From the IMG/VR virus record IMGVR_UViG_3300045988_109836: a stretch of DNA of 64,000 nucleotides; one strand, written 5' to 3'. How positions within the stretch are numbered: the first letter of the stretch is position 1; each line of letters starts with the position of its first letter. Of the stretch, positions 15,240 to 49,408 are shown one piece after another. The stretch comes from a virus. The notes under the pieces are model-generated. The model ran no database searches, had not been told where the DNA came from, and saw nothing but the letters and a program-made list of their open reading frames with translations. Both the position numbers and the translations under genes were made by a program.

Positions 15240-15320
15240 GAACCGTTCCACTACCTCAATCTCCTTTGTTCAAGACAGTACAATAACAATAGAGGCTCTG
15301 AAGGTAGGGGTGTGGGTGAA
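15240..15320. repeat. left arm of a perfect 81-bp inverted repeat (IR-L)
   Basis: 15240..15320 is the exact reverse complement of 18280..18360, compared base by base. The match ends at 15239/18361 and at 15321/18279. Confidence 0.93.
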
Positions 15321-16773
15321 CAACAGAAGAGTAGAACAATATTCTACATATATAGGCATATATGATAAACCGTATAAAGGGGCTTATACTGGTGTTGTAA
15401 ATTTACCAAGTGAAGAAAGTAAATTGTATGCTATTAGTAATTCTTTTGGTATTGTATTCCCTATGTATTATAGGGATACATATATGGTTGGGTATTCTGT
15501 CTATCTGGCCAGTAGTAAATTTAATGAATGGCTTATAGCTAAGTTATATAAAGGTAATAATATATGGAGTAATAATTATCCAAATTCAATAGATGATTAT
15601 AATATTTTTGGTTTATCAATAAGTTATCCTTATTATTATTTTAAAGAAAATAATAATTCAGTAATTACATTTATTTCTTATGCAATTGACTTAAGAATAA
15701 CTTGGTATGTGATACTAATTTATGGAGATACCAGTTCTAAGTTAAGTTCATATATGTCGCAAAGATTTTATACCAGTAATGCAGTAGGAGACCAACATAA
15801 ATATTTTAATAATTATTCTGTAAAGAAATATGCTTCTGTTATTAAATGTATTCCTTCTTCAAGAGGTTATGTTTATATTTATACTATTGGAAACCACGGT
15901 AATTCTTTTTTTCGGATAATAAGAGGTGAAACATCGAATAATGGTTATCCAACTGAATATCAAATTAGTTATTTAGATATATCGGGATATCCTTACAAAG
16001 ACGAAGGTAGAGTAGAACATATGGGATGGTTAGTATTGAGAAGTGATAACGAAAAAGTGATTATTTTAGTAAAATCACAAGATAGAACATATGGAGATAC
16101 GCATGCTAAATTTTATTACGGAATATGGAAAGCGTCTGTAGGGCAATATGGAGAAAGTTTATTATCAAGTAGTAATTATAGATGTTATTACAACATTCCC
16201 TCTGCAATTACATCTGTAATAGGTGGTGATTACTGGGTATCGCCAGATTTAAAATGGTTATTCTACATATCACTAAGTGGAGCTAATTACCAAGGATTTT
16301 CTAAAGGATTACATACTATAAAAGGGTCATCAGCTCTTTTTGGAGATAATGGATGGACTGGAGTTTCTTATGAAATGGAAGGAGGAGGTACAGATATTTT
16401 AAACGCTTGTCAGAACTATTATATATTAGATGTTCAATTTAATAGCAAATCTGATAAAATAATGGTTCTTGGGAATTCTTCTAAAGGTGCATTTACAGAT
16501 GTGGAACCTCGATATAGTTATGCAGAAGGTATTCAACCAGATATAATACTTTATTTTATTTGGGTGGAAAATAAGAAAAAATTTATCAAATTAAATAGTT
16601 CTTTTATAGGAGGAGATGCGCTTTGGAATGATTATAATAACTCTATATCTGGAGGCAAAGGTAATGCCTATAAACCTTTAATCAATTTTGTAAATGGAGA
16701 AATTAACTTCATGTATCCTGGAGGGAATGAGCCGTTTAATGCGTATAGATATAATTTGAGTTTCGGAGATTGA
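15241..16773 (+). CDS. silent alternative C-terminal cassette of the 3420-aa fibre (no own start codon or promoter)
   Basis: This is the only plus-strand ORF with protein-like composition. Its frame opens right after TAG 15238..15240, at the outer edge of IR-L. It encodes NRSTTSISFVQDSTITIEALKVGVWV, identical to the fibre protein, then 484 unique codons. There is no in-frame ATG for about 50 codons after the repeat. The C-terminal ~200 aa are homologous to the current fibre C-terminus. Confidence 0.8.
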   Translation, partial: NRSTTSISFVQDSTITIEALKVGVWVNNRRVEQYSTYIGIYDKPYKGAYTGVVNLPSEESKLYAISNSFGIVFPMYYRDTYMVGYSVYLASSKFNEWLIAKLYKGNNIWSNNYPNSIDDYNIFGLSISYPYYYFKENNNSVITFISYAIDLRITWYVILIYGDTSSKLSSYMSQRFYTSNAVGDQHKYFNNYSVKKYASVIKCIPSSRGYVYIYTIGNHGNSFFRIIRGETSNNGYPTEYQISYLDISGYPYKDEGRVEHMGWLVLRSDNEKVIILVKSQDRTYGDTHAKFYYGIWKASVGQYGESLLSSSNYRCYYNIPSAITSVIGGDYWVSPDLKWLFYISLSGANYQGFSKGLHTIKGSSALFGDNGWTGVSYEMEGGGTDILNACQNYYILDVQFNSKSDKIMVLGNSSKGAFTDVEPRYSYAEGIQPDIILYFIWVENKKKFIKLNSSFIGGDALWNDYNNSISGGKGNAYKPLINFVNGEINFMYPGGNEPFNAYRYNLSFGD

Positions 16774-16826: not shown

Positions 16827-19800
16827 TTAATCATTAAAAGTAAGAGAAGCATAATATGCTGTCGCATTCTCACTATACGATGGATAAACATAACTCATAT
16901 CCCATGTGTTCCCTAAATAATTCTGGTTAATACTAAAGAATGGTCTCAATTTACCACTTCCAGAAGCGTTATATTTGTTCCAGAAATTAGTAAATCCTAC
17001 TATATTATATGGTATATTTATCCATTTACCACCATTTAGCATTTCAAAACAAAATATATTAGTAGGATGTATACCTTCTACATAGGAATTAGCAATAATC
17101 GCTCCTCCTTGTGCTCCCTTTTGTCCATTACAGAGAACAATCATTTTAGAACCATCTTTATTAAATATAACGTCAAGAACATAATAATTAGCAAGAGTGC
17201 TTCTTAATTCTGATACAAAGTTATCATTAATAGTTATTGATGTTGCAGCCCAGCCGTTTTCATTAACTAAAACGGAAGTGCTTCTTACTATATTTATTCC
17301 TTTCGACGCTCCCCCAGAACCCTTGCCAACATAAAACATAAATCTCTTATCTTTTGACATCCACACATTACCTCCCATATTGTTAGTAATAGAAGAAGGT
17401 ATGTTATTGTAACAATGCCAATATTGCAAACTACTACTACCTTTTATATAATTCCATGTAGAAGAACCTTTCCATACCAATACATAAAAATCAAAAGTTA
17501 GATTTTCTTCTGAAAAAGTCTTTTGAGGGCCGTATACAAACAATATCAATTGATGTTTGGACAGATTAATATACACTCTCTTGTAAAAGAATATATTGAT
17601 TTTTCTTCCAACAGTAGGCCCATTAACTTTTAAGCTATAAGAACTCATAGAAGAGCCGATATCCCAAGATTGAAGTCTTATACTAATTTGATTGTTATTA
17701 TTTGGTGTTTCGGGTATCGCAATTATTTCTTGACTATTAATGCTTTCATTAATTGAATTCACTTCTTCTTGTGTTACTAAAACACATAAAGAATTACGTA
17801 CAGAATAATTATTACTATTTTGAAATACTGAACCTAAAGTGCTATCATTATCGCCTTTTACATAATTTAAAAAGCCTTTTCTTATATTCAATTGCCCCCA
17901 TGTTAACCTATTTGCACCACTAAATCCACAACATACGTAGTTCAAGTTTTGAAAATCACCATTAGAAGAAGGACTTAAATAAAAACTACCTTGTATATGA
18001 CTATATCCATACAGTCTATATGAACCATTCGCTCTATTAGAATCAAAAAATGTTGAAACTCCATATACATTAGGGGAGTCAACGAAAAGAGAAGCTACCG
18101 TTTTTAGATTTATCATCTCTAATTCATTTACTTTACTGGGGTCATATGTCAATACAGCTGCACACGAACTACTTGGATATGTCTTATTTGCCTCTATAAC
18201 TGGTTCTACATATAACCCAGAATACGAATTTTTACGAGATGTTGCGTCTCTTCCGAAATTACTGCTGCTAAATTCGTCCTTCACCCACACCCCTACCTTC
18301 AGAGCCTCTATTGTTATTGTACTGTCTTGAACAAAGGAGATTGAGGTAGTGGAACGGTTCGGATAATTAAAGTTTCCTGTTCCTGTTCCTCCCCATGTCG
18401 TGCTTCCTCCAGCTTCCCACCAGTAGTTACCCGGCTTTATCTTCAAAACTACCTGTCCGCTCGTGTTTGTAGTGCCGCTGTATGATGTACTACTGTTGTT
18501 GCTTGACAACTTCACTATTACACCGCTTCCTACTCTTGAACCTGTACTCACGTTGTTTACGTTTATTGTTATCGTTACTTCACTCGGTGTCAAATTGATT
18601 GTCAAACCTCCTGTGTTATTGCTTGTCGTATTTGACGTGACGTATCTTGTAGCGGTTACTACATATCTATTTGTCAGTCCAGATACGTATACAGTTGCTT
18701 GTCCTGCGCTGTTTGTCGTTACTGTCTGTGTTGCATGTCCTGCACCTACTTCACCAGAAGTCTGGTAACTACCATTTATACCGTACATATTTATTGTAGC
18801 ACCACTTACAGCCGCACCTGTATAAATATTCCGCACTATCACCGTCATACTCTTTATTGCAGTAGAATAAAATGCTGTAGCGTCACTGTTATGTCCTATA
18901 TTGCTAAAATTATAATTAGGAGTGATGGAATACGGTGTTTCGGTTGTCGTTGTACCTGTCACGAAATAATTCGCCAATTTTGCCGTTATCGTTGTAGTAA
19001 GACCTGCTATCCATGTATATGTAGCCAAATAATACACTACGTTATTTGCCGTCAATGATACTGTTGTTGCTACTCCTGCCGTTGTAAATACTGGCTTTAC
19101 CAGATTAGCAGTTCCCCACCATCCTAATACTGGCGTCGAAAATGGTATTTTTAGCCTAAATTCTGTACCTACACTCTTCGTCAATCTTACCGCATTCTGT
19201 GTAGTAGTTGCCAAAGGCATTGTTATCGTCGTGCTTCCGGCTACCCAATAACTCGTACCACCACCCCATGACAATGTATATGAACCTACTATCATTGGAC
19301 CGAATGACACTTGACCGCTGCTGTTCGTCGTTCCGGAAAATGTAACAGAAGAAAGGCTCTTGTTCGTCAACGTTACCGGACATCCGTTCGCATTTCCTTT
19401 TACTGCTCCTTGATAGTAGTCCTTTATGGTGAATGTTATAGAAGAACTTGTCTCGCTCATTTTCAGACTGTATGGGCTTGCCTGTCCTGCTGATAATGTA
19501 CCGGATAACGAATTATAATTCGTTTTTGAGAATGAGTAGCTTCTTCCGATACCACTCCTGTATGCAGTCCAGTTACCGCTACTGTCTGTCGTTCCTGTCT
19601 GTCCGAAATAGGAACATGATACACCGCTTATGTTTGTTCCATAATTAGAACTCTTTATATTGAATGTAAGACGTGCAGTTATATTGAGCGTCATTGTCCA
19701 GGATTGATTTTCAGATACCCACGTCCATTCTTGGCTTGCATTACTATAGTAACTTGCATAGTTTTTCGACGTATAGGTGTAATTAATACCAGCATATACA

Positions 19801-22800
19801 GTATTTGACTTTTTACCGCTTCCGTCCAACGTTATTTCTCCTGCCGGGGCATTTGAACCAGTAGGTACACTTCTTACTATCACCGCCCCACTTAAAGGAT
19901 AAGTGGCGGTAATGTTTGGAATTTTCTCTACAACCGTCAATGTCACCGTCCTTGTCGTTCTGTTCATCGTCACTGTATAGGGTGATGTCTGTGTGGCGGT
20001 TACTGTTCCTACATAGTTATTGAAATACTGTGCCGTGGCAGTCATTTGTCTATCAAGTCCACTTCTGTAAAAATCTCCTCCAGATGCTTTTGTCTGTCCG
20101 AAATAGGTGATTGTTCCCAAAAGCGCATTACTTGTATTGTAAATATTTGCTACCGTATTAATAGTTATCTTCTGATTACAAGCCAGCCATACATTTATAA
20201 GTTGCCCTGCTGATGTATAGGTAATCTTCTGGCTCGCATTGCTGTAATAATTCGGTCTTGTTACTGGTGATATTGTAATAGGTGTACCAAGATAAGTCAC
20301 AAAAGATACACTACCGTTCGCATCCAACGTTAACGGACTTGTAGAAGCTGCTGGACTGAAATTCATCTTCATAGATGAGTATTGTTCCATTGCAAAATTG
20401 ACAAATGTATCTGTTCCAGAAGCTGCCTTTCTTGTTATTTTTACAGCATTTGAACCACTGCTATTGTTATATACATTTACGTTATTCATCCCTTTATCAA
20501 AAAAGAAGTCTCTATAGGCGTTTAGTATCTTGTCATAGGTACATTTACTTAAAATTGTAGCATCTGACGCATTTTGTACATTACTTCCAGTTATGTCGTA
20601 TACAGTAGCCATTTCGAGATACCATGTAACTGGTCTGCTTCCGCCATTCAGATAAAAGAAGTTGGTTGTTGAAAAACTTCCAGTAGAACCACATCTTACA
20701 TAATAGGCATAAGTATACCATCCCCCTGTTCCGTTTCCATTATTAGAATCAACCCATTTTCTTACTGTATTATCTCCTGTTGCATTACTTGCAAAAACCA
20801 ATTGTCTTCCTGCCGGAACCTTTGCTCTGAAATATGCTACAAATTCCTTGTTTGCTGCTGTTGGTGTACCAAGATAGAAGCCGCCTAATCCAGGCGTTAC
20901 GGCAGAACTTGCATCCGTAGTGATTTCAAGCATATATTTAGGAGTGACTGGTATAACTTCACTTACCGACAAACTTACTGTAGCGGTTGAACGTGTCATT
21001 ACTACATTGAAAGGTGATGCAGTGCTTGACGTTATACTGCCTCTGTAATTGCCGTGATAAGTGGCTGTAACATCTACGTTTCTTGTTACAGAACTTCTAT
21101 ACAACGACACATTACCGCTGCTGTCTGTCTTTCCCGTCTGATGGAAATATGATACCGTAGCTCCACTTAGATTTGTTCCACTCGGCACATTTGACTTGAC
21201 GTTTATAGTTATCTTTGCCGTTACCGTCAAATCCATAGTCCATGACTGGTTGGCGGCTGTATAGGTATGTTTCTGTGTCGGATTGCTGTAGAAGTTCGGA
21301 TGTCCTACTACTGTAAACGTCATTTCCGTACCTATATATCCGTTGAATGTCACTGCACCGTTCGCGTTCGTAGTAAGTGTTCCGGTTGTACTTCCTGCCG
21401 TGTATTTTATCTGCAAGTTCTGATAATAGGTTGTCTGTGCTGGCGTTACTTCTCTTACTACAAGTGTAACCGGATTGGCTGCACGTGTCATTATGATATT
21501 GAATGGGTTTGGTGAGTTGTAAGCTATCTGTCCGGTATAGGATCCCAGATTTGATGCACTTACTGATATATTACGAGTGTTAGCACTCCAATATAATACT
21601 GCATTACCGCTACTGTCTGTTGTCTTCGTTTGACTGAAATAAGTTACTGTAGCTCCCGACACATTCGTTCCAGGCACGTTGTCCTTCACATTTACAGTTA
21701 TCTGTTTTGCACAAGTGAGATTCATGTTCCATTTCTCACTGGATGTAGTAAATATATGTGTTTGTTGATAATTCGTGTAAAACGGTCTTCTGTCCGGTGC
21801 TGATATGGTGAATGTGATGGGAATACCTAAATATGCCTCAAAAGTGTTTTTACCTGCATCTACTGTTCCATTTCCTGCTGCGGATGTATAAGCAAGTGTA
21901 AAGTTGGTATTATTGTCAAGAATTACACTCGCACCACCTGGTATCACTTCATATTGCTGCACTGTCACTACATGTTTGTTTCTCAACATAGTAACATTAA
22001 GCGGTGAAGCCGTGGTAGGTGCAATGGTTCCATTTACTGTACTATAATCGTCCTTGTCAAGCGAATACTCTTTACTCAATGCAGACCTGTACAACGAAGC
22101 GTTGCCGCTCGCGTCCGTCTTCACTATCTGTTCACTGTACGCAACCGTTACACCCTGGATATTCGTTTTCGCATATACATCTTTTACATTTACAGTTATC
22201 TTTGCAGTCACATTCAAATCGAACTTCCAGATTATACCGTCTTCATTCCATGTATACTTCTGTGTTGGGTTACTGTAAAAGTTAGAGTAGGAATCAGTCG
22301 TGAACGTGTATTCGAGACCCTTAATCAATAACTCGTTCGTATATCCGTTCTCATCCAATGTCAATTTTATTGTTCCTGCCCTGGAAGTCATTGTTACAGT
22401 CTTATTTGCAAGAAACGCTCTTCCCGCTGTACCGTATATTTCCGATACCTGTATACCTGCGTTAATCAGTTCGTATTGTACTTCTACATCCAACACTGTG
22501 CCATTCTCATTCTGCGGATGTATGAATGTATCTGTAGTAACTTCACCTGCAAGTACGGAATAGGTGTAATTACCTATCGGAACATTCTGCATCGTAACTA
22601 CACCGTTCGCGTTCGTTTCACCCTCAAACACGAGGTCTTTCAATACAGTGTTTTGTATTCTTACCAAAATTCCGTCCGGTGGTAAAACTCCTTGTGTAGA
22701 AACATTGAACGTTACCGGATATGACTTTGCAGCCAATTCTATATCCATTCTCGTTTCCGAACCCGTAGGCTTGAAATTCCCGGTCTTGGTTGTATAATAT

Positions 22801-25800
22801 TGCTTACTTGCACTGTAAGACATATTTACTGGAGACAGATACATATACACTATCCCGTCTGTATTTGTCGTTTGTGTCTGATTTACAGACATTCCGCTAA
22901 ATACAACCGTTACTCCACTCAATTTCCCGTACAAGTCGGAAATCACATATACCGGAATTCTCTTTGAACATGTATATACAAGGTCTTTTGTATTCGCATC
23001 TCTATAATTGATTATAGCTGTTGTACCGTTGCCGGAATAGAATCCTACTGGCTGCACCTGGAAACGTTCTGCAATCCCTGCATATACTGTTTTTGTAAAT
23101 TGTCCGCTTGCATTCGTCGTTACGTTCACACCGGAAGATGTACTATTGTCGTTGTAATAGCATGCAAGAACAAGACCTGTCTTTACCGGATTTGATGCTG
23201 TAGTCGAAATAGAGGGTATTATTTCTTTTACCGTGAATGTGACTGATTTTGTTCTTCTTGTTAATACTGCTGAATGTGTCTTGTCCGTAGGCAGATAGAT
23301 GTTTTCTGTCTTGCTGTTGAAATTACTGTTTCCTCCTCCATAGGTTATCGTATAATTTCCAGGCGGTATATTGAAATTTCCATTTCCTTGCGATATCAAT
23401 TGTCCGCTTGCATTCGTTGTTCCAGAAAAACTATATGCTTGTGAAGATGTTCCACCCCATGCACTCGTAACCGTTACCGGACAACTTTCTGCTGCTTTTG
23501 AATAGGGATTATTTGCTGTCAACGTCAGACTGAATGTCATTGCAGCATAACCCATGATTATATCTATATAGTCAACCGACAACGGGGGTGTAAATGTTCC
23601 GGTCTTTTTCGTATGGTCTGCCACTGTACACTCGTAGCTCATTGCGATAGGTGAGATATACACTCTTGCTGAACCATCACTTCCGGACGTAACGGTTTGA
23701 GGCAGTGACATTCCGGACACCTTTATAGTCGCATTTTCAAGCGGTCTTAGAGTGTTCTGCTGTTTTACTCTTAATTCAAGTCTTTTTGAAGCTGTTATTT
23801 CCATGAGTGTAGGTACACTCGCTCCGAAATCCCAGTTCTTAATCAGCAACCCTTCGTTCTCATAGAAGCCTTTCTGTTTGATTGTCAACTGATAATCAAT
23901 ACCTGGCATTACTTCCGGAAATATCTTGCCTTGTGCGTTTGTCGTATATTCTTTTACTGTACTATTGTACATATTTTTTACTGACACGACAATTCCTGCT
24001 TTTACCGGATTGAAATTCAGTGCAGCCTTTTGTTCTGCCACTATCTTAACGGTTACCTGGCTTACTGGTGTTGTTATCGTCACATCCACATAGAAAGACC
24101 TTGCAGCCGCATCACGTGTAGTGTTCGGCTGCACTGTCAGTACGGAACCCTTAAATGATGCTATATCGTCACTTGACACGTTAAACGTCAATTCTGCGCC
24201 ACCATCTGCAAAATTATATGGTTCGTCCTCACCGCCTAACTCTACCCGTCTGAATGTCTTTATATAGTCCATCAAGTCAAACGTTGCCCCTTTGTTGGGT
24301 ATGATTAGGTTTTCGGGTGTATGGACTATATAATAATAGCTATCGTTCGACAACGTTTCTGCCGTATTCTCACCATTGAATCTTACTGTCGTCGCGTCAC
24401 CAGATACACCAGGTATACTTTCGATTACATCTACTTCCGGCTCTATCTCCTTTCTCGTCATAGTGAAAGGAAGTTCTATGTCTTTCAGCTTTTCAAGTGT
24501 TACCGCCTGGTTTTCTACCGCATTGTAATATCTATGCGAAGCGTTCCAAGTATATTCCCCCGCCTCTGCTCCAAGCAACAACACGCCTATATCGTTCGTA
24601 TAGCCGGAATCCACCTTTATTCCCGTACCCTTGTTTATCAATTCGATATATACTCCAGAAATAGGGTCTTTTGTTATTGCGTCTGTCGCAGTGTATGTTA
24701 TTACCGTGTCCCTCAACTCTAAAAAGATTGTTTCGGGTACATCCTGGTCCTTAATAGTCACCGTTCCGGTATATCTCTTGTAATTTCTGTGTGTTACCGT
24801 ATATTCATAATCACCATTGGGTAATGTTATACTCGATACACCATTGACATTCGTTATATGCGTTTCTCCGTTAATCTGGATTTCCGCACCTTGTATGTAG
24901 TTACCGTTCTCTATGTCTCTGACAGTTAGTCTGAATGTATAGAATGCCTGTTCAAGTTCAATTATTTTTGATACCTCCGTACCATCCACAACAACGAAGT
25001 CGTTGACCGACATATAACCGGACTTAAAAGCGGTATATTCGTATGTTCCATTAGGAAGGCTGACAATCGCCACACCTTCTGAATCTGTTAAATATGTCGA
25101 TTCGTTGATTTTTATTGTCGCTCCTTCCAACACCATTTGTGTTGCCGCATCCAATACGGTAAACTTTATGGCATACGGAATCGCGGTCATTTCAACAAGT
25201 ATACAATTAGGGTCTTCTGCCGTTACCTCAATCTCCTTGTTGAGTTCTTGGTAGTCCTTTTTTACTACCTTCATTTCATACCTTCCTGTCTGCAATCCGA
25301 TTGTTGCCTGCCCTTCCTTGTCTGTTGTCTCTGTAATATCCTTTATGATAATATCGGCTTCCGGAACATAAATATTTCTATTTCTGTCTATTACAGCAAA
25401 ATTAACTTCCTTGGTTGTAAGAAACATTCTTTGGAATACCTCTACTGGCTGGTTTTCTACTGTAAAAACACTCTCTATAGTTTGAAAACCTGCCTTCTCT
25501 AAAGTGTATTCGTATATACCAGGTTCGAGACTTATTGTCGCTGTTCCGTCCTCTCCTGTTTCAGATGTGTAAACACTTGTCTTTACCGTAACACCTTGTA
25601 ACGGTGCTTCTCCTTCATATACAGTAAACGTTACTGGATAAGGTGTTGCAACAAAATCGTTTATATTTATGTATATAGGGTTGTTCAAAACCACAAACTC
25701 ACCCTTCTTTTGAGTCCAGTTCGTTTTTGAAAGGATGTATTCATATTCCCCGTTTTCGAGAAGAATGTTTGCCGTACCGTTACTGTCCGTAATGATTACC

Positions 25801-27089
25801 TTGTTTCCTATTGTTATATATGCACCCGGTACGGCTACATTCTTGGTATTTGTCACTGTAAACGAACACAAATATTTCTGTGACGCTATGACTGATTGCG
25901 ACCCTTTATATATATCACTTTCCCCTGCCGGATAGAAAATATTGGATAGACTGCTTCCCGAATCATACAAGATGTTTCCTTCCAAATCTCGCATTCTGAA
26001 ACCCTTGATACGCGGCAACATGTTCAAAGGAACCTCTTCGTCAAAGTAGGGGAAGAAGTATTCATCTGGTACATATTTCACGCCTTCTGCTGTCTTCACG
26101 ACTTCCAACAAATCATCCCATTCTACCTTTTTACCTGCTTCCCAGAAACGGAAATCAAGATATTTTGTCATTGCAATCTGGATATTTTTTCTTACATCCG
26201 CAATCACTGCATTAGGTGACAATTCCACACGGAAATCTACCCCCTCTTCACCACCTACATACATCCATTTTGCATTTTCAATCACTATTCCAAGCGTATT
26301 CCCTTGCAAGTCAAGTTCTGTCAATCCGAAATAGGGTGTTGCTTTTGTCAATAATTCTTCCAATTCATCATCCGTAAAGAAAGAACCGTTTTGCGTCACA
26401 AGGTAGATATGTGTCTTTCCATCCTCGCCCAAACCGACATTCATAACCTTTAGAATGCGTGAATCCAAATCCTGGAATATCTGTGTCCAGCCTTCCATTG
26501 TATCGGTGGAAAGCTTGTTGTTGTAATTTATTATTCTGTTTCTGAATGTCTCGTCGTCCTCATAGTCACGTCCACCAATAGCTGCGTATTCATTAGTGCA
26601 CTCTATATGTGTCAACGGTCTTGGCGATACCTCTGTAATACTATTCGCCTCCACATTCGTAGCCGACCCGGTTATAACACTGCGTACACTGATATATCCA
26701 TATCCCGACTTATCAACAGTAAACGGCTGGTCTACAATGAATTGTACTCCATTCTTTGATATAAACTTTGTGCCTACCTCGTACTGTGTACCTGGTTCAG
26801 CGAATACACGTACATAAGTAGAGGAACCAAGCGCTTCTTTTCTCGGACTGACACCGAACAACGCTGCCGACTTGTCAAGATAATTTCCTGTTGCCGATTT
26901 CGGGAAAATCTGTGCCTCCACTATGGCAATATCCTTTATCGCTTTTTGTGCCACCTTTGCGGTGCCATAGGCAACACCATTAAGTACAGAACCGTCCGCA
27001 ATATTTGAAACACGGTCGGTCTTGTTCAAGAACATTTCAATCCACAAATTTTTTAAATTTGCAATCGTATTCGCTGTTTTAGTAATCAT
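16827..27089 (-). CDS. baseplate-J-like wedge protein fused to a giant repetitive tail fibre (3420 aa); C-terminal 484 aa encoded inside the invertible segment
   Basis: The N-terminal ~390 aa have baseplate J (P2 gpJ / T4 gp6-like) character: ..GSVLNGVAYGTAKV.., ..YLDKSAALFGVSPRKEA.., ..GGRDYEDDETFRNRI... Next come carboxypeptidase-regulatory-like repeats. Five ~200-aa tandem modules occupy about 19450..22300. The variable tip lies downstream of IR-R. Confidence 0.85.
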   Translation of the reverse strand: MITKTANTIANLKNLWIEMFLNKTDRVSNIADGSVLNGVAYGTAKVAQKAIKDIAIVEAQIFPKSATGNYLDKSAALFGVSPRKEALGSSTYVRVFAEPGTQYEVGTKFISKNGVQFIVDQPFTVDKSGYGYISVRSVITGSATNVEANSITEVSPRPLTHIECTNEYAAIGGRDYEDDETFRNRIINYNNKLSTDTMEGWTQIFQDLDSRILKVMNVGLGEDGKTHIYLVTQNGSFFTDDELEELLTKATPYFGLTELDLQGNTLGIVIENAKWMYVGGEEGVDFRVELSPNAVIADVRKNIQIAMTKYLDFRFWEAGKKVEWDDLLEVVKTAEGVKYVPDEYFFPYFDEEVPLNMLPRIKGFRMRDLEGNILYDSGSSLSNIFYPAGESDIYKGSQSVIASQKYLCSFTVTNTKNVAVPGAYITIGNKVIITDSNGTANILLENGEYEYILSKTNWTQKKGEFVVLNNPIYININDFVATPYPVTFTVYEGEAPLQGVTVKTSVYTSETGEDGTATISLEPGIYEYTLEKAGFQTIESVFTVENQPVEVFQRMFLTTKEVNFAVIDRNRNIYVPEADIIIKDITETTDKEGQATIGLQTGRYEMKVVKKDYQELNKEIEVTAEDPNCILVEMTAIPYAIKFTVLDAATQMVLEGATIKINESTYLTDSEGVAIVSLPNGTYEYTAFKSGYMSVNDFVVVDGTEVSKIIELEQAFYTFRLTVRDIENGNYIQGAEIQINGETHITNVNGVSSITLPNGDYEYTVTHRNYKRYTGTVTIKDQDVPETIFLELRDTVITYTATDAITKDPISGVYIELINKGTGIKVDSGYTNDIGVLLLGAEAGEYTWNASHRYYNAVENQAVTLEKLKDIELPFTMTRKEIEPEVDVIESIPGVSGDATTVRFNGENTAETLSNDSYYYIVHTPENLIIPNKGATFDLMDYIKTFRRVELGGEDEPYNFADGGAELTFNVSSDDIASFKGSVLTVQPNTTRDAAARSFYVDVTITTPVSQVTVKIVAEQKAALNFNPVKAGIVVSVKNMYNSTVKEYTTNAQGKIFPEVMPGIDYQLTIKQKGFYENEGLLIKNWDFGASVPTLMEITASKRLELRVKQQNTLRPLENATIKVSGMSLPQTVTSGSDGSARVYISPIAMSYECTVADHTKKTGTFTPPLSVDYIDIIMGYAAMTFSLTLTANNPYSKAAESCPVTVTSAWGGTSSQAYSFSGTTNASGQLISQGNGNFNIPPGNYTITYGGGNSNFNSKTENIYLPTDKTHSAVLTRRTKSVTFTVKEIIPSISTTASNPVKTGLVLACYYNDNSTSSGVNVTTNASGQFTKTVYAGIAERFQVQPVGFYSGNGTTAIINYRDANTKDLVYTCSKRIPVYVISDLYGKLSGVTVVFSGMSVNQTQTTNTDGIVYMYLSPVNMSYSASKQYYTTKTGNFKPTGSETRMDIELAAKSYPVTFNVSTQGVLPPDGILVRIQNTVLKDLVFEGETNANGVVTMQNVPIGNYTYSVLAGEVTTDTFIHPQNENGTVLDVEVQYELINAGIQVSEIYGTAGRAFLANKTVTMTSRAGTIKLTLDENGYTNELLIKGLEYTFTTDSYSNFYSNPTQKYTWNEDGIIWKFDLNVTAKITVNVKDVYAKTNIQGVTVAYSEQIVKTDASGNASLYRSALSKEYSLDKDDYSTVNGTIAPTTASPLNVTMLRNKHVVTVQQYEVIPGGASVILDNNTNFTLAYTSAAGNGTVDAGKNTFEAYLGIPITFTISAPDRRPFYTNYQQTHIFTTSSEKWNMNLTCAKQITVNVKDNVPGTNVSGATVTYFSQTKTTDSSGNAVLYWSANTRNISVSASNLGSYTGQIAYNSPNPFNIIMTRAANPVTLVVREVTPAQTTYYQNLQIKYTAGSTTGTLTTNANGAVTFNGYIGTEMTFTVVGHPNFYSNPTQKHTYTAANQSWTMDLTVTAKITINVKSNVPSGTNLSGATVSYFHQTGKTDSSGNVSLYRSSVTRNVDVTATYHGNYRGSITSSTASPFNVVMTRSTATVSLSVSEVIPVTPKYMLEITTDASSAVTPGLGGFYLGTPTAANKEFVAYFRAKVPAGRQLVFASNATGDNTVRKWVDSNNGNGTGGWYTYAYYVRCGSTGSFSTTNFFYLNGGSRPVTWYLEMATVYDITGSNVQNASDATILSKCTYDKILNAYRDFFFDKGMNNVNVYNNSSGSNAVKITRKAASGTDTFVNFAMEQYSSMKMNFSPAASTSPLTLDANGSVSFVTYLGTPITISPVTRPNYYSNASQKITYTSAGQLINVWLACNQKITINTVANIYNTSNALLGTITYFGQTKASGGDFYRSGLDRQMTATAQYFNNYVGTVTATQTSPYTVTMNRTTRTVTLTVVEKIPNITATYPLSGAVIVRSVPTGSNAPAGEITLDGSGKKSNTVYAGINYTYTSKNYASYYSNASQEWTWVSENQSWTMTLNITARLTFNIKSSNYGTNISGVSCSYFGQTGTTDSSGNWTAYRSGIGRSYSFSKTNYNSLSGTLSAGQASPYSLKMSETSSSITFTIKDYYQGAVKGNANGCPVTLTNKSLSSVTFSGTTNSSGQVSFGPMIVGSYTLSWGGGTSYWVAGSTTITMPLATTTQNAVRLTKSVGTEFRLKIPFSTPVLGWWGTANLVKPVFTTAGVATTVSLTANNVVYYLATYTWIAGLTTTITAKLANYFVTGTTTTETPYSITPNYNFSNIGHNSDATAFYSTAIKSMTVIVRNIYTGAAVSGATINMYGINGSYQTSGEVGAGHATQTVTTNSAGQATVYVSGLTNRYVVTATRYVTSNTTSNNTGGLTINLTPSEVTITINVNNVSTGSRVGSGVIVKLSSNNSSTSYSGTTNTSGQVVLKIKPGNYWWEAGGSTTWGGTGTGNFNYPNRSTTSISFVQDSTITIEALKVGVWVKDEFSSSNFGRDATSRKNSYSGLYVEPVIEANKTYPSSSCAAVLTYDPSKVNELEMINLKTVASLFVDSPNVYGVSTFFDSNRANGSYRLYGYSHIQGSFYLSPSSNGDFQNLNYVCCGFSGANRLTWGQLNIRKGFLNYVKGDNDSTLGSVFQNSNNYSVRNSLCVLVTQEEVNSINESINSQEIIAIPETPNNNNQISIRLQSWDIGSSMSSYSLKVNGPTVGRKINIFFYKRVYINLSKHQLILFVYGPQKTFSEENLTFDFYVLVWKGSSTWNYIKGSSSLQYWHCYNNIPSSITNNMGGNVWMSKDKRFMFYVGKGSGGASKGINIVRSTSVLVNENGWAATSITINDNFVSELRSTLANYYVLDVIFNKDGSKMIVLCNGQKGAQGGAIIANSYVEGIHPTNIFCFEMLNGGKWINIPYNIVGFTNFWNKYNASGSGKLRPFFSINQNYLGNTWDMSYVYPSYSENATAYYASLTFND
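18280..18360. repeat. right arm of the perfect 81-bp inverted repeat (IR-R), inside the fibre ORF
   Basis: Encodes residues 2911-2936 (NRSTTSISFVQDSTITIEALKVGVWV) of the 3420-aa protein. It is the reverse complement of 15240..15320. Confidence 0.93.
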
Positions 27090-36716: not shown

Positions 36717-37646
36717 TTAATAAATCCTCTTCCAATAATAACCTCTCGCTGTAAAAACTGGGAAATTATCACAAGCCCTTTTTATAGCGGTTCCGTTCAC
36801 AAGATTTACGCTTCTTGCTGCATTACTAAAAGAATCATGAGTATTTATAAGATTCATATCTTTATCATATTGTTCTATTCTCATATTGCCTTTTCTTGGA
36901 TATTTTACTTCATACGACCTTTTAGAAGAAGCAATTTCGATATTTTCTCTTTCTTCATTTGTTTCTTTATATTTCCATTTAAACCCTTTACAAGTACGAT
37001 TCGGATTGTTACAAGCTGTTCTAATTCCCGAAGCTCCATAACATAACCCGTAAAATTTACCAGCTTCACATACACTTTCCCATTCTCTTATAAAATTACC
37101 GTTCAAATCATATTGCAAAATAGGTCTTTCTCTTTTTCTTGAAATAACTCTTTTCTTTCTTTCCTCAATAGTTTTCTTTTTACGATTATTATTAATTTTA
37201 CCTAATTTGGTTTTTCTTATTTTCTCTATTGATTCTTTTGAAATAACCTTTCCCTTATGAGCAAGTCCAATCTTTCTTTTTGCTTCTTCTGAATGTCTAT
37301 AAAACCTTTTCTTATAAACTTCTTCTCCTAAAAATCCTCCTCCACAACACAAAGTTCTATTATATCCTACTTCCGGATTTATAGAATCAAACTTTTCTAT
37401 ATAACTTCTTTCAAGATTATTAAATTCTTCTTTAGAATCTCCTTCATAAAATTCTAAAATATCTATTTTAAAGTTATGCTTGCCGTACTTTTTAAATGCT
37501 TGTTCTATAACAATACCACTGCCTTTATATCCATCATTCAGTCTATCAGTAATATGTTGCCCGATATAAATTTTACCGTTTATATTATTAGTTGTTTTAT
37601 AGATAAACTTATATTTACGGTTTGTCATTTTGTTAGCTGTTCTCAT
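36717..37646 (-). CDS. GIY-YIG homing endonuclease (free-standing)
   Basis: N-terminal ..YKFIYKTTNNINGKIYIGQH.. (GIY-x10-YIG) with ..R..E..N.. further downstream. Basic repeats resembling NUMOD/IENR DNA-binding modules in the C-terminal half. Starts 4 nt after the terminase stop; an alternative ATG lies at 37628. Confidence 0.8.
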   Translation of the reverse strand: MRTANKMTNRKYKFIYKTTNNINGKIYIGQHITDRLNDGYKGSGIVIEQAFKKYGKHNFKIDILEFYEGDSKEEFNNLERSYIEKFDSINPEVGYNRTLCCGGGFLGEEVYKKRFYRHSEEAKRKIGLAHKGKVISKESIEKIRKTKLGKINNNRKKKTIEERKKRVISRKRERPILQYDLNGNFIREWESVCEAGKFYGLCYGASGIRTACNNPNRTCKGFKWKYKETNEERENIEIASSKRSYEVKYPRKGNMRIEQYDKDMNLINTHDSFSNAARSVNLVNGTAIKRACDNFPVFTARGYYWKRIY

Positions 37647-41379: not shown

Positions 41380-42246
41380 CTAAAATAAATTATTTTTACA
41401 AATCCAAAGACCTTCTTGCTTGTTACAGCCTTTGTTCTTTCCACAAAATGATACTGTCTTGTCTATATAATCCACACATTCAAAATCACCGGGCATCCAG
41501 TATTCCGATATGTAACAATTTTTCTGCTGTTTCGCCCAGTCATAAAATTCTTCATGATTGAAATTAGTAAAATACCCTTCGGTATTTATATAGGGTGGGT
41601 CGCAATATATTACATACTTCTCTTCTTTCGGTATTTCCAACTCTCTATAGTCACCCTGGAAAACTTCGATATTACCCATTCCCTGTAAACTCTGCAAATC
41701 CCAAAGTCTTTCCAACCGTTCCATGCTTTGCAATCTCTGCAAATTATCCGGATAATTAAGCTTCACCAGAATATCCTTTATTGCACATCTTCTATCCTTG
41801 AATGTATCACACCCCTTAAACACATCTTCCGGAATAGAGATACCCATATCTTCAAACAGATTAAAATCACCAAAACAGATTGCATAGTGGAAAGCCTTCT
41901 TATATGGTTCGACCTGTTCACTATAACAATAGGTTCTCTGATTGTTACCGAAAGAAAAACATAATCTTACATACGTATCGTCTTTCTTTAATCTGAAAAA
42001 GTCCTCCCTACTTATCCATCGGTTTTCATCCTTGAACTTCCCGTTTACTGCATCAGCGAAAAACTTTGCGCTGTCCGTTATATCGTTTATGACAAACCTT
42101 TTGTATTTCCCCGATAAAATGGCTGCATGAGTGACTGCACATCCCCCAGCAAAAGGTTCTACCCATACATCAGCGGAAGGAAGAGCCTCAACGACCCATT
42201 TTGCAATACGTGATTTACTCCCTTTATAGGATAATCCATAATTCAT
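41380..42246 (-). CDS. Dam-like N6-adenine DNA methyltransferase (D12 class)
   Basis: N-terminal ..YKGSKSRIAKWV.. and AdoMet-binding ..VEPFAGGCAV.., with the catalytic ..IYCDPPYINTEGY.. (DPPY motif). Confidence 0.8.
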   Translation of the reverse strand: MNYGLSYKGSKSRIAKWVVEALPSADVWVEPFAGGCAVTHAAILSGKYKRFVINDITDSAKFFADAVNGKFKDENRWISREDFFRLKKDDTYVRLCFSFGNNQRTYCYSEQVEPYKKAFHYAICFGDFNLFEDMGISIPEDVFKGCDTFKDRRCAIKDILVKLNYPDNLQRLQSMERLERLWDLQSLQGMGNIEVFQGDYRELEIPKEEKYVIYCDPPYINTEGYFTNFNHEEFYDWAKQQKNCYISEYWMPGDFECVDYIDKTVSFCGKNKGCNKQEGLWICKNNLF

Positions 42247-42252
42247 ACCTCA

Positions 42253-42648
42253 CTACTTTATCATCAACAACCTTTCAAAATCCTTGTCCCGTTCCTCCTC
42301 ACTCTTATACACTACCCATAAATTCTTTATAGGGTTGTCCTTGAATGATGCACTTTCGTCTGCCAGCTTGTTTATCACTATAGCCGGGTTTCCGTCCGAA
42401 TACCAGTCTTTTTCGTATGATATGATAAAATACTTCATAAGGGCGTGTTCCCCGTCACTGAACACAAACATTCTGCCTTTTGAACGTTCCTCGTATTCCT
42501 TCCAGGAATCAACTTCTTTCTGAAATATTTCCGCTTTCTCGCTATTAGGGTTTTCCAAATAGTCTATTATCTTTTTGGATATCCTTTTCAGTCCTATAGC
42601 GTTGAACACTTCCGCACATCCTATCAATATATCAATATCTTTTCCCAT
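42253..42648 (-). CDS. hypothetical protein
   Basis: 131 aa, ATG start. No motif recognised. Confidence 0.55.
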   Translation of the reverse strand: MGKDIDILIGCAEVFNAIGLKRISKKIIDYLENPNSEKAEIFQKEVDSWKEYEERSKGRMFVFSDGEHALMKYFIISYEKDWYSDGNPAIVINKLADESASFKDNPIKNLWVVYKSEEERDKDFERLLMIK

Positions 42649-43063
42649 GCTCTTTCTCCAAAAGTTTTTCTATCCTCTCTTCCGGTATCTGGTTCTTCAA
42701 ACTCTTTCTGTCTCCAAAATCATATATCTGATGGCATTCCATACATGCCAGCACTATGTTTTCCGGGTCACAGCGCAAACCTGGGTGTGCTCCTCGGCTC
42801 AATATATGGGAGAAGAAAATAGGCTTCATTTCAAGACCCAGCCACTTTCCACAATGGAAACAATAATGGGGGTTCTCCTCCCATACCTTAACAAACACTT
42901 CGTTAAGCCTGTTTTCTTCCTCCTTCAATGAAGCGCGGTTCAACTTCAATTTCTTTCTATTGTCGTAGCATTCCTTACATAACCATCTATTGCGGTCATA
43001 TATGAAATGATTCTCCTTGCAAGAAACACACGGTCTGACTTCTTCCTTCACTGTCTTTTTCAT
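42632..43063 (-). CDS. HNH/NinG-like zinc-ribbon nuclease
   Basis: CxxC pairs (CVSCKEN..CKEC; CFHCGKW..CMEC) surround ..FSHILSRGAHPGLRCDPENIVLACMECHQ.., which shows H...N...H spacing. Confidence 0.45.
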   Translation of the reverse strand: MKKTVKEEVRPCVSCKENHFIYDRNRWLCKECYDNRKKLKLNRASLKEEENRLNEVFVKVWEENPHYCFHCGKWLGLEMKPIFFSHILSRGAHPGLRCDPENIVLACMECHQIYDFGDRKSLKNQIPEERIEKLLEKEHGKRY

Positions 43064-46607: not shown

Positions 46608-47318
46608 TTACAGTCCTTTGTTTATATCAGCTTCCACACCGGGCAATTCGTAATCCCTTTGATAATTATCCGCACCCCACTTGTCAGCCGCAATGCCTGC
46701 ATCCTCAAATGCAATCTTGCTAAGCAATTCTTCGTTTACCAGTGTTCCTACAATCTGGTCCAAAGTCAAATCAAGCCTTACAGACTTTATGAATATAGGA
46801 ATAGGCAACACGTTCTGGTTTGTCATTAATTCCGTTATCCTTACCTCTACCAAATCATATTGGGTAGAAAGCCAGTTGTAGGAACCCATTATAAGTGCAT
46901 ACAAAACTTCCGACATAATTATACTTTCCAGCATGTTGTCCGAAAGACACATTATCTCAAAGTTATGGAAACGGCTATCTCTTATTTGCCATGCTCCACC
47001 ATCGTATATCTGTCCGTTCATTTTCCCTATGGAATTTGCAGCTCCTGGGTCTGCTCCCGGCTCCCTTATTACATAGGCCGGTAATCCCGTATTGTCTTTC
47101 GGGAATTCAAACAACACCCTTAAATTACGGGGGTTTGTCATTCCTCTCAAAAACAGCTTTTTCGCCTGGTCGTAAAAATCAAAATTCCCTTCCTTCATCC
47201 CATTAAGAAGTCTGTATAAGAAAGTATTCTGTTCGTCTCCCTTATGCAGTCTGTAATCTTCTGGTATATAGTTCAATATTGAAACTATAAACTGCTTTAC
47301 CTTCACAATTTCTATCAT
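46608..47318 (-). CDS. virion structural protein (neck/tail completion region)
   Basis: 236 aa, ATGA-coupled to the upstream gene. Assignment by position only. Confidence 0.5.
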   Translation of the reverse strand: MIEIVKVKQFIVSILNYIPEDYRLHKGDEQNTFLYRLLNGMKEGNFDFYDQAKKLFLRGMTNPRNLRVLFEFPKDNTGLPAYVIREPGADPGAANSIGKMNGQIYDGGAWQIRDSRFHNFEIMCLSDNMLESIIMSEVLYALIMGSYNWLSTQYDLVEVRITELMTNQNVLPIPIFIKSVRLDLTLDQIVGTLVNEELLSKIAFEDAGIAADKWGADNYQRDYELPGVEADINKGL

Positions 47319-48100
47319 AGCCCTTTAATTTGTTTTAATGCCTCGTCTATCGCCATTTCAGCAACATATTCTATCTGGGCCTCTTCTAAAGCCCTGTCCA
47401 TTAGTTTTTTAGCTGTTATACCACCATTGAACCAGCTTGTAGGGTCTGACTTATCACTAACCCTTCTGAATGTCATATACTGACCTCTCTTTTCCTGGTC
47501 CGAACTTCGAGCCTCAACCCTTACAAGACCTTCATATTTTGCAGACTTGTGCATGTATTCCGGCACGTTCAATCCCGGTATGTTTATCTCCTTCCTGCTT
47601 CCCCTTACCTGCTGGTTTGCTGGCAAGTCTGCGAATTTCAGAGGCTGACCGCCTGCATTACGTGCCATATCGTACACATCTTTAGGCATAACAGAACTGA
47701 ATATTCCGGATTCCGCTATTGCTCCAGGCGTGGCGTGTCTGAACGGTATTGTTAGATACCATCCTAAACCGTCCTTCTTTATCTTTGCCTTGTCCGAACG
47801 TTGGAACCCTATCTTCTCGTCAAACGGTGTCGCACCCTCTTCCAGCATCATAGGAAGTGGACCTGCCGCCCTTGCAGACAATACAAATTCTACAGATGTG
47901 GCGGAAGTCCGGTCTACCTGCATTGCAGACCGATATATTCCCCGTGTCTGATGCAGTTCAGAATCTACAAGCGCATTCCACCTTCGCATATACTCCTTTA
48001 CTACATCATCGACAAGACGTGTTCCAAGGAATTCTGCTTCTTGTGGTGTCAATGCGAATTCCGCAACCGTTTCTGATATGTCTACATATAGAGGTAACAT
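47315..48100 (-). CDS. virion structural protein (neck region)
   Basis: 261 aa, between the capsid and sheath genes. Assignment by position only. Confidence 0.5.
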   Translation of the reverse strand: MLPLYVDISETVAEFALTPQEAEFLGTRLVDDVVKEYMRRWNALVDSELHQTRGIYRSAMQVDRTSATSVEFVLSARAAGPLPMMLEEGATPFDEKIGFQRSDKAKIKKDGLGWYLTIPFRHATPGAIAESGIFSSVMPKDVYDMARNAGGQPLKFADLPANQQVRGSRKEINIPGLNVPEYMHKSAKYEGLVRVEARSSDQEKRGQYMTFRRVSDKSDPTSWFNGGITAKKLMDRALEEAQIEYVAEMAIDEALKQIKGL

Positions 48101-48102
48101 CT

Positions 48103-48558
48103 TTATTCTTCTGCTATATACCTAATATCACACCCGAACTTTGCAAACAACATCTCTATAAAATCGCTGTCCGTTCCCGACAGACTTTTCCGGCTCAATG
48201 TTACTACCGTCCCTATCTTATAGGCTATCACATCATCCAATAGCTTGTTGAACCCTTTTCTTTGCGCCAATGTAACGTTAAACGTCACGTCCTTATATAC
48301 ATCTTTGGCATGCAGTCCGTTTTCCCTGCAATATCTTTCCAGTGCTTCTATATGCTTGTTTAGGTTATGTTTGTTCATAACCCTTGCATACATTACATTC
48401 TTTCTTTGTCCTTTGGACGCAATCGCATATACCGATTCATCGTCGTAATCTATCCATTGTGTGGCGGAATTATGGGTCTTTATCTTTCCTTCCTTTACAT
48501 AATTAGATAGTGTTGCCCGGCTTATGCCCAGGACTTCCAAAACTTTCTTTGCTCTCAT
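48103..48558 (-). CDS. MerR-type HTH + degenerate serine-recombinase (resolvase/IS607 TnpA-like) catalytic-domain protein
   Basis: The track start at 48564 is TTG; the ATG is at 48558 (MRAKKVLEVLGISRATLSNYVKEGKIK = HTH). Then ..VMYARVMNKHN.. sits where Y-x-R-V-S-S-x-x-Q is expected, and ..VVTLSRKSLSG.. sits where D-R-L-x-R is expected. The ORF ends at ..CDIRYIAEE*, before helix E. Confidence 0.65.
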   Translation of the reverse strand: MRAKKVLEVLGISRATLSNYVKEGKIKTHNSATQWIDYDDESVYAIASKGQRKNVMYARVMNKHNLNKHIEALERYCRENGLHAKDVYKDVTFNVTLAQRKGFNKLLDDVIAYKIGTVVTLSRKSLSGTDSDFIEMLFAKFGCDIRYIAEE

Positions 48559-48608
48559 ATACAAAATGTTTAAAAGTGTACAAAACTAAACATTTTCTTT
48601 CAAAGATG

Positions 48609-48616
48609 CAAATTTA
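48609..48616 (-). promoter_or_regulatory. putative -7 box TAAATTTG (class-II TTTGCAT type) upstream of the recombinase-like gene
   Basis: The minus strand reads TAAATTTGCATC. The TAA is also the stop codon of ORF 48614..49408. About 50 nt upstream of ATG 48558. No good -33 element was seen. Confidence 0.3.
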
Positions 48617-49408
48617 TACGTCCTCAATATCTTCATTATATATCACACCGCTACCGTCAAAATTAGGTTTCTCCATCGCTATAAGATGGCTTCTTCTTAC
48701 AATTGCCTGTACCGGAAGTTCTATCTTATTGAGTTGTCCGCTTTTCTTGTCTGTAGCCCATGAAGCACGTATCTCGTGCGGCAAATCTATAACATGATAT
48801 TCCGGGTTATGCTTGTAATATACCGACACAAAGCCGTTTTCGGGCAAAGCGTCTATCTCCATATCCAATATGATACAATAGGGATTAACGTCGCTTATAT
48901 GCCCTTTATCCGTCTTTACAAGGGGCTTGTTTGAAGCCTCAAACAGATACATCGCCAATACCTGTACTGGCTTATATGTAGTGAACACAAACGGCTGTCC
49001 CATATCATCGTATCTTATAGGAAGATTTTCAGAAAAATACGATATCTCGTTTCTGAAAGATATCCTGTCATAATAGGATAAATTCGCCTTGTCTATATCC
49101 CTAACTGTTACAGCCATTGTACCTAAAAGTTCCTGGCTCCATGACTTGTATTTGTCCGTAAAGTTAATCCCTGTTATCAGCGCCTTTGTGTGTATCGCGT
49201 TCACATAGAAATATCCTGTACCGAAACAGTTCTGACAATCCGGCAATGCAGATTCTTTCCCATGACACGGACAACGTAAAGCACGCATTATCTCCACGTC
49301 GTAACCTTTGGCTTGTATCGCCTTGTCAAATTCCGACTTGAAAAATTCCGGTCTAAAATTACTCAATCCGGAAGACGGGGATTGTAATATATTTCTTGTT
49401 TCTCCCAT
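48614..49408 (-). CDS. virion structural protein with a Cys4 knuckle
   Basis: 264 aa. ..RCPCHGKESALPDCQNCFGTGYF.. Located in the head-tail connector region. Confidence 0.5.
   Translation of the reverse strand: MGETRNILQSPSSGLSNFRPEFFKSEFDKAIQAKGYDVEIMRALRCPCHGKESALPDCQNCFGTGYFYVNAIHTKALITGINFTDKYKSWSQELLGTMAVTVRDIDKANLSYYDRISFRNEISYFSENLPIRYDDMGQPFVFTTYKPVQVLAMYLFEASNKPLVKTDKGHISDVNPYCIILDMEIDALPENGFVSVYYKHNPEYHVIDLPHEIRASWATDKKSGQLNKIELPVQAIVRRSHLIAMEKPNFDGSGVIYNEDIEDV

Follow-up and report, generated by a model that had tools for sequence, protein, structure and literature searches.

The gene considered here lies in a 64,000-nucleotide stretch of viral DNA (IMG/VR record IMGVR_UViG_3300045988_109836; "the window" refers to this whole stretch) and encodes a 151-residue protein related to TnpA, the transposase of IS607-family insertion sequences. 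The open reading frame (ORF) of this TnpA-like gene starts with ATG and has its stop codon at 48103-48105; an in-frame TTG at 48564, two codons before the ATG, is an alternative start (Table 1). An earlier note, made from the sequence alone, had described the gene as embedded among virion genes, which is correct. It stands between g264 and g261 in a module whose gene order runs from a BACON-domain protein, the portal, a NUDIX/DUF5856 protein, the protease and the major head protein through three small virion genes to the TnpA-like gene, and then through more virion and tail genes toward the tail genes that contain Baseplate_J. The ATG of g261 begins 2 nt past the stop of the TnpA-like gene.

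The same note had given the gene its own candidate -7 box, and the layout around this box is kept across lineages. The candidate promoter has a 20-nt spacer between its -33 and -7 elements and 22 nt between the -7 and the ATG, and the identical arrangement of -33, 20 nt and -7 recurs in all 60 close relatives and in a lineage with a 74% identical protein (L001). Across the window and L001 lineages, the -7 has the form TAnnTTTG and lies 22 to 24 nt ahead of the start codon. The -33/-7 consensus of Bacteroides promoters was reportedly established by Bayley et al. in 2000. Together with the BACON domain, this type of promoter makes Bacteroidota the probable host.

Table 1. Features of the TnpA-like locus and of the inverted repeats, in window coordinates
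Feature	Position	Strand	Basis
IS607 TnpA-like coding sequence, 151 residues, predicted catalytically dead, no helix E	48103..48558	-	ORF list, family matches, hhalign, AF2, Foldseek
N-terminal winged helix-turn-helix, residues 1-50	48409..48558	-	HTH_17/MerR_1 matches, AF2, conserved T16/L17/G24
Former catalytic core, residues 51-151, ending at strand beta4	48106..48408	-	Pfam Resolvase, Foldseek
Met61 codon at the nucleophilic-serine position; the adjoining 3-residue deletion takes out a conserved Gln	48376..48378	-	Profile-profile and phmmer/6dgc alignments
RKSLSG, residues 123-128, over the active-site motif KDRLTR	48175..48192	-	Profile-profile and phmmer/6dgc alignments
Candidate Bacteroides-type promoter: -33 TTTG at 48612-48609, -7 TAGTTTTG at 48588-48581	48581..48612	-	Read from sequence
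Two direct TTTTGTAYA copies, 48585-48577 and 48566-48558, 19 nt apart; candidate binding sites	48558..48585	-	Weak evidence
g264, PHROG 1004 virion structural protein; upstream neighbor, left insertion border	48614..49408	-	
g261, PHROG 16819; downstream neighbor, right insertion border	47315..48100	-	
81-bp perfect inverted repeats, 100% complementary	15240-15320 and 18280-18360		

Homology, inactivation and conservation

The protein has the domain order of IS607 TnpA, with an N-terminal winged helix-turn-helix (HTH) followed by the alpha/beta core of serine recombinases. Residues 1-45 match the Pfam families HTH_17 (E = 3e-5) and MerR_1 (E = 7e-3), and residues 55-149 match Pfam Resolvase (E = 3.5e-7; 30.9 bits against a cut-off of 23.3) over profile positions 2-100 of 145. 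The NCBIfam model of the IS607 transposase (NF033518) is matched over positions 2-152 of 187 (E = 4.7e-21), with a score of 75.2 bits that falls below its curated equivalog cut-off of 110 and does not make the protein a member at that threshold. PHROG 6620, annotated "transposase," is matched with E = 5e-21. Furthermore, a profile of the family aligned to a profile of 21 Ser-containing IS607 TnpAs with an hhalign probability of 100% (E = 4e-41). The phage protein is 25 to 41% identical to the IS607-family relatives in the alignment, whether or not they contain the Ser.

Structure prediction gave the same picture. An AlphaFold2 (AF2) model built from an 81-sequence alignment reached a mean predicted local distance difference test score (pLDDT) of 91.3 and a predicted template modeling score of 0.81; it replaced a model from a 5-sequence alignment that was unusable (pLDDT 55). 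The N-terminal domain consists of helices at residues 3-10, 14-22 and 40-48 and strands at 28-30 and 36-38 (pLDDT 84 to 95). With Foldseek, the core matched the catalytic domains of the IS607-like TnpAs 3lhk, 6dgc and 3ilx (E of about 3e-7; root mean square deviation of 1.4 to 1.6 Å over about 100 residues), and it superposed at 1.4 to 2.3 Å on 6dgc (ISC1926 TnpA) and at 2.8 to 2.9 Å on 6dgb (IS1535 TnpA). Thus, both domain calls of the earlier note hold: the MerR/excisionase-type HTH by its two Pfam matches and the helix-helix-hairpin-helix of the model, and the IS607 TnpA-like core by Pfam, NCBIfam, hhalign and Foldseek together, with significant similarity to the resolvase fold. Domains of the MerR/excisionase type bind DNA sequence specifically through a recognition helix, usually as dimers; the domain is present and conserved here, including T16, L17 and G24, which are near-invariant throughout the IS607 family.

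The active site is a different matter. Ten columns are invariant in an alignment of 21 full-length Ser-containing relatives (Y, R, V, S, Q, Q, R, D, R and a Glu of helix E). The phage protein keeps Y57, R59, V60 and the Arg of "RKGF" and has lost the other six, namely, the Ser, both Gln, the Asp, an Arg and the helix-E Glu. In the hhalign alignment, YARVM---NKHNLNKH lies over YARVSTxKQKxDLxNQ and RKSLSG over KDRLTR. Met61 therein replaces the Ser, His69 the second Gln, Lys124 the Asp, Ser125 the Arg and Gly128 the last Arg of KDRLTR, and the first Gln falls within the 3-residue deletion. A phmmer alignment to PDB 6dgc agrees on these losses. The RKSLSG-type loss of KDRLTR is common to all family members, and neither lineage has a Ser, Thr or Cys in the loop between beta1 and helix A (YARVMNKHN in the window and YARVFERVN in L001, with Phe at the nucleophile position). 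Additionally, hhalign coverage stops at template column 157 of 210, and the AF2 model closes with the strand at 144-147, its final secondary-structure element, with the ORF stopping four residues later; the helix-E region, of about 45 to 50 amino acids (aa), is therefore absent. As far as its residues reveal, the 151-residue protein cannot cut or rejoin DNA. The earlier note had anticipated most of this: it had found the catalytic Ser missing ("YARVMN") and the ORF ending where helix E would begin, and both alignments place Met61 in the Ser column with no intact Ser/Arg set in register, the alignment and the model stopping at beta4. Its reading of the DRLxR motif as SRKSL was right about the loss and one residue off in register.

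The loss of catalysis has not been followed by decay. The ORF is intact at 151 residues in 61 of 61 copies (59 IMG/VR loci, the relative L002 and the window), each a single copy at the same locus of its genome. These copies comprise 49 DNA alleles, in which the variant codons are 57 synonymous and 17 nonsynonymous. The ratio of nonsynonymous to synonymous substitution rates (dN/dS), estimated by the Nei-Gojobori method in the three pairwise comparisons among the window, L001 and L002, was 0.055 for window/L002, 0.085 for window/L001 and 0.114 for L001/L002; ten neighboring virion genes gave 0.01 to 0.12. Synonymous divergence (dS) from L001 is about 2, so that synonymous sites are near saturation. 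The overall GC content of the gene and that of its third codon positions are the same as those of the phage. The gene is therefore under purifying selection and is not decaying. The earlier note had left open whether it was an exapted DNA-binding protein or a decayed mobile-element remnant; exaptation is favored and decay rejected because all copies are intact, dN/dS resembles that of virion genes, and length and position are kept at a dS of about 2.

In IMG/VR, 60 loci of the gene, with 94 to 97% identity, were found on phage contigs of about 100 to 108 kb. A large protein database holds four clusters of the family at 90% identity, all of 141 to 155 aa and all Ser-less; the main one has 312 members, nearly all of 151 aa, from contigs of up to 108 kb, and is labeled "predicted site-specific integrase-resolvase" by JGI. 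An exhaustive hidden Markov model search of 1.84 billion representatives returned one representative of the family (297 bits), the next matches being ordinary IS607-like proteins at 112 bits. Among INPHARED phages, megablast of the locus gave no match and tblastn gave ordinary IS607-like transposases only, with at most 36% identity. A scan of bacterial and archaeal genomes for the family yielded no confirmed match, and PADLOC yielded weak HTH-level matches only.

The position of the gene records its history. In the L001 lineage, it occupies exactly the matching position with equal architecture. In four more distant relatives, whose g264 homologues are 63, 61, 47 and 39% identical, the g261 homologue directly follows that of g264, overlapping it or lying at most 7 nt away. 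The gene is therefore an old, clade-specific insertion in a tight gene junction, made in the ancestor that the window and L001 lineages share; this bears out the earlier note's statement that it interrupts a structural module. An IS607-type element would have entered between two abutting head-completion or neck genes in the ancestor of the clade, and its transposase would then have lost the nucleophilic serine, other active-site residues and the entire helix-E region. Canonical IS607, including intact copies in other gut phages, has the order left end, tnpA, tnpB and right end; therefore, a single deletion taking helix E, tnpB and the right end would yield the present gene, which we propose as one parsimonious route.

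Mobile genes and inverted repeats in the phage genome

Two of 62 relatives have a TnpB gene immediately upstream of the TnpA-like gene, in L002 (404 aa) and, unrelated to it, in L049 (397 aa). Both TnpBs carry OrfB_IS605 and TNB domains, and 58 of the 60 IMG/VR relatives are without them. The L002-type element (L002 8672-9989; also L063-L142) is about 1.3 kb long and TnpB-only. Its terminal inverted repeats (GGTAAYTATATA ... TATATAATTACC) measure 12 bp, a hairpin lies immediately within the right end, and the target-site duplications are 8 bp long and begin with A. Gut phage contigs of 100 to 160 kb carry the element at no fewer than 15 distinct sites, and it has 259 IMG/VR hits. One of its target sites is empty in the window (43050-43063, minus strand, in the first codons of ORF 42632..43063). 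Searches of the window for the GGTAAYTATATA ends returned only near-chance matches with one mismatch. The ends look like those of a DDE-type transposon and not those of IS200/605 or IS607, and no transposase for the element was seen in these phages. TnpBs with inverted-repeat ends and links to DDE transposases are already known in viruses (PMC10691335). In L049 (4626-5931), the TnpB gene, with an HTH_OrfB_IS605 domain, is inserted in the 3' end of g264 and has ends of the L002 kind. Two TnpB lineages with one set of ends suggest mobilization in trans by one enzyme. These TnpBs are not IS607 partners, and the data do not support a functional connection between such elements and the dead TnpA. 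The TnpA-like gene itself does not form part of a mobile unit, having no linked tnpB and remaining single at a fixed locus.

Other selfish genes occur nearby. In the distant relatives L388 (3148-4014) and L390 (3425-3979), GIY-YIG/NUMOD3 homing-endonuclease genes lie just upstream of the g264 homologue. On the simplest reading, this gene junction tolerates selfish insertions, and the neighborhood is a hot spot for mobile genes. The large terminase of the window (37651-39765, minus strand) contains an intein (Hom_end_hint, E = 3e-18, plus Hint), and the terminase gene is directly followed by a NUMOD1 homing-endonuclease-like gene (36717-37646, minus strand). This phage genome is rich in selfish elements. 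Intact IS607 is common in gut and jumbo phages (L143-L186, IMG/VR phage contigs of 60 to 700 kb), with a Ser-containing tnpA of 200 to 209 aa followed by a tnpB whose product is 36 to 40% identical to the L002-type TnpB. The window also encodes a D12-class adenine methyltransferase (41380-42246, minus strand), and one ORF between 36000 and 64000 matches Zeta_toxin (E = 1.6e-34).

The TnpA-like gene had been called the only recombinase-like gene in the window, and a Pfam scan (E ≤ 1e-3) of the 69 remaining window ORFs that reach 120 aa indeed found no Resolvase, integrase, DDE transposase or TnpB. The 81-bp repeats bracket the 3' end of a 3420-aa ORF (16827..27089, minus strand) together with an opposed 487-aa ORF (15310..16773, plus strand), a segment that looks like a switchable C terminus of a tail protein. 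About 40 kb beyond the window were rebuilt from a 104-kb ENA contig with an identical window protein and a 106-kb IMG/VR relative (L190, L192, L334 and L310), covering all but about 250 bp, and were searched using precomputed Pfam hits together with ORF scans (minimum length 100 to 110 aa). No site-specific recombinase was found among the ORFs scanned there; the genes outside the window include DNA polymerase III alpha, RecA (L192 11029-12000; E = 1e-74), NAD ligase, SNF2 and UvrD helicases, RNase H and a holin. The earlier conclusion that no inverting enzyme is evident thus extends to about 40 kb outside the window in the 106-kb relative, where no canonical invertase was found either. Homologous recombination between the repeats, one of the options named in the earlier note, is plausible because the genome of this relative encodes RecA. 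An exact 34-nt probe from the repeat, used to look for orientation variants, found no match in IMG/VR.

Function and alternative explanations

We are highly confident that the protein is non-catalytic and functional. The best reading, which we regard as probable without being firm, is that of an exapted, catalytically inert DNA-binding protein, probably dimeric, that acts like a regulator. The parts that remain are a winged-HTH DNA-binding domain and an alpha/beta core, and the biochemistry of IS607-family transposases suggests what they could do. The catalytic domains of IS607 TnpA dimerize through helices B and D and not through helix E (Chen et al. 2018, eLife, PMC6188088), and the N-terminal winged helix is required for DNA binding by TnpAs of this family (PMC6188088). 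Furthermore, IS1535 TnpA deleted for residues 147-193, which ends at beta4, retains the ability to form DNA complex 1 and shows a defect in the cooperative paired-end complex (PMC6188088). The mechanism of a dimeric, inert DNA binder is proposed because the natural protein equals a truncation of this type plus the loss of chemistry. By this analogy, the phage protein would bind DNA sequence specifically as a dimer, would be expressed from its own host-type promoter and would probably serve as a regulator, possibly acting on DNA that stems from the left end and lies immediately upstream of its coding sequence. The homology, the fold, the inactivation with the truncation, the purifying selection and the insertion history are shown by the analysis, and the function is drawn from this one biochemical precedent.

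Several observations weigh against the regulator-like DNA binder. Operator searches in the window yielded no DNA target. TTTTGTAYA occurs seven times in the window against 3.1 expected, a weak enrichment, and the two copies in the upstream region of the gene overlap the promoter elements. The palindrome ATTTGTACAAAT, which relatives have upstream, occurs in the window about as often as expected (9 copies against 8.2). Helices B and D are no better conserved than other parts of the core in the five-sequence alignment A1. Finally, the promoter brought by the insertion could hold part of the selective value, which would not explain the low dN.

An alternative that we consider unlikely makes the protein a decoy or an inhibitor of transposition. 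As such, it would bind IS607 ends, or heterodimerize with active TnpA through the B/D interface, and would prevent IS607 from inserting into the phage genome or rearranging it, in the manner of truncated transposase inhibitors elsewhere. Tn5 Inh, IS1 InsA and P-element KP are such non-catalytic, DNA-binding transposase parts, able to compete for element ends; they come from the active element itself, whereas the phage protein stands alone, with no cognate active element detected. Intact IS607, common in other gut phage contigs, was not seen among the fetched loci of this clade, although this absence comes from pattern-limited sampling and not from a census. The helix-E-deleted IS1535 TnpA, which binds ends without the paired-end complex (PMC6188088), behaves as expected of a competitive inhibitor. 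However, 25 to 41% identity to IS607-family relatives makes shared DNA specificity or heterodimerization doubtful. TnpB elements also still colonize the clade, although they are of a type with terminal inverted repeats and target-site duplications that would not use IS607 TnpA. If the protein were an anti-transposon factor, a tightly packed 105-kb genome would be shielded from IS607 invasion, and other Ser-less IS607 TnpA-like clusters would constitute an unrecognized class of transposase-derived transposition inhibitors or regulators.

Rather unlikely as well is a structural or adaptor protein that does not bind DNA, or a locus kept mainly for a promoter driving the downstream neck and tail genes. 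The place of the gene within the virion module, 2 nt before g261, and the conserved host-type promoter that comes with it would suit this explanation, but the HTH residues T16, L17 and G24 are retained and a promoter-only role does not predict a dN/dS of about 0.06 to 0.11.

The suggestion in the earlier note that the protein might serve the 81-bp repeats found no support. As an accessory factor, it would assist inversion between them together with the RecA of the phage or a recombinase of the host. The repeats are indeed present and fully complementary, and no invertase was detected in the window or, in the RecA-encoding relative, beyond it. Yet the upstream TTTTGTAYA repeat is absent from the 81-bp arms, and nothing else connects the two loci. 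Moreover, 81 bp of perfect identity suffices for RecA-dependent recombination, which at that length needs no accessory protein, and the 34-nt probe for orientation variants had no IMG/VR match. We consider this role quite improbable.

A functionless, decaying pseudogene of an IS607 insertion would account for the truncation, the missing catalytic residues, one frameshifted 81-aa allele (P0007) and one 90-aa member among hundreds of sequences, but it is already contradicted by the dN/dS at a dS of up to about 2, the 61 intact copies and the length kept in the 74%-identity lineage, and its probability is very low. An active recombinase with an unconventional nucleophile is barely conceivable, since the core fold is preserved but the beta1-helix A loop offers no Ser, Thr or Cys in either lineage and the Asp, both Arg, both Gln and helix E are all gone.

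Relation to known systems and significance

The closest comparison is with the TnpAs of IS607, IS1535 and ISC1926 (NF033518; 6dgc and 6dgb), which share the winged HTH, the short linker and the order of the serine-recombinase core. Unlike these, the phage protein lacks the Ser, the DRLxR arginines and aspartate, the conserved glutamines and helix E, and its gene has no tnpB partner or sign of mobility, being fixed as a single copy under purifying selection. The engineered IS1535 TnpA lacking residues 147-193 (PMC6188088) likewise ends at beta4 and retains the winged HTH and the B/D interface; it differs in having kept the catalytic Ser, and its DNA sites are known, with end DNA still bound in complex 1. 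The invertases Gin, Cin and Hin resemble the phage protein in their resolvase core fold, in being phage-encoded and in occurring in a genome with an inverted-repeat-flanked tail-gene segment, but they have a C-terminal HTH, an active Ser and helix E. With an N-terminal HTH and neither Ser nor helix E, the phage protein does not belong to the small serine invertases and resolvases (Hin, Gin and gamma-delta). TldR proteins, which Wiegand et al. reportedly described in 2024 as nuclease-dead, TnpB-derived, RNA-guided repressors found in phages too, would be alike in that a component of IS200/605 or IS607 type has lost catalysis and is kept as a DNA-binding regulator. They differ in deriving from TnpB instead of TnpA and in being guided by RNA instead of an HTH.

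The wider IS607 family points to repeated inactivation of TnpA. Of the 150 top-ranking representatives (P0005-P0153 among them), 127 align over 135 or more of the 151 residues, and 72 of these 127 are Ser-less, 24 of the 72 being without helix E as well; the query profile was itself Ser-less, so the sample is biased, and most of these clusters are rare. On these counts, inactivated or exapted IS607 TnpAs may be frequent and as yet unsurveyed. The Ser-less representatives include several distinct lineages of 153 to 157 aa. One representative (P0005) is a 270-aa protein made of five tandem TnpA-type winged HTHs alone. An apparent domain-swap variant (P0004) was set aside as a probable assembly chimera or an uninterpretable recombinant. 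It comes from a 1.1-kb contig (L189) whose positions 1-480 have TAG codons in frame, which the gene calls read as Gln, beside an unrelated gene upstream, and are joined to the C-terminal two-thirds of the TnpA-like gene. The contig arose either as an assembly chimera or by recombination with a TAG-recoded phage having its own Ser-less TnpA-like gene (P0051-like).

Exaptation of transposon proteins is known as a type of event. For a domesticated or Ser-less IS607 TnpA, no description was found in the full-text literature searched, including a Ser-less, helix-E-less derivative fixed in a phage. One practical consequence concerns annotation: the public label "predicted site-specific integrase-resolvase" is wrong in function and could lead to this abundant gut phage being classed as temperate or as a carrier of its own invertase. 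Additionally, the natural truncation coincides with an engineered mutant of known biochemistry, which makes the proposed mechanism directly testable. The gene offers a clear-cut example from nature in which a serine transposase was stripped down to what would be its DNA-binding and dimerization parts and fixed by selection in a virus, and it would be the TnpA-side counterpart of the TnpB-derived repressors.

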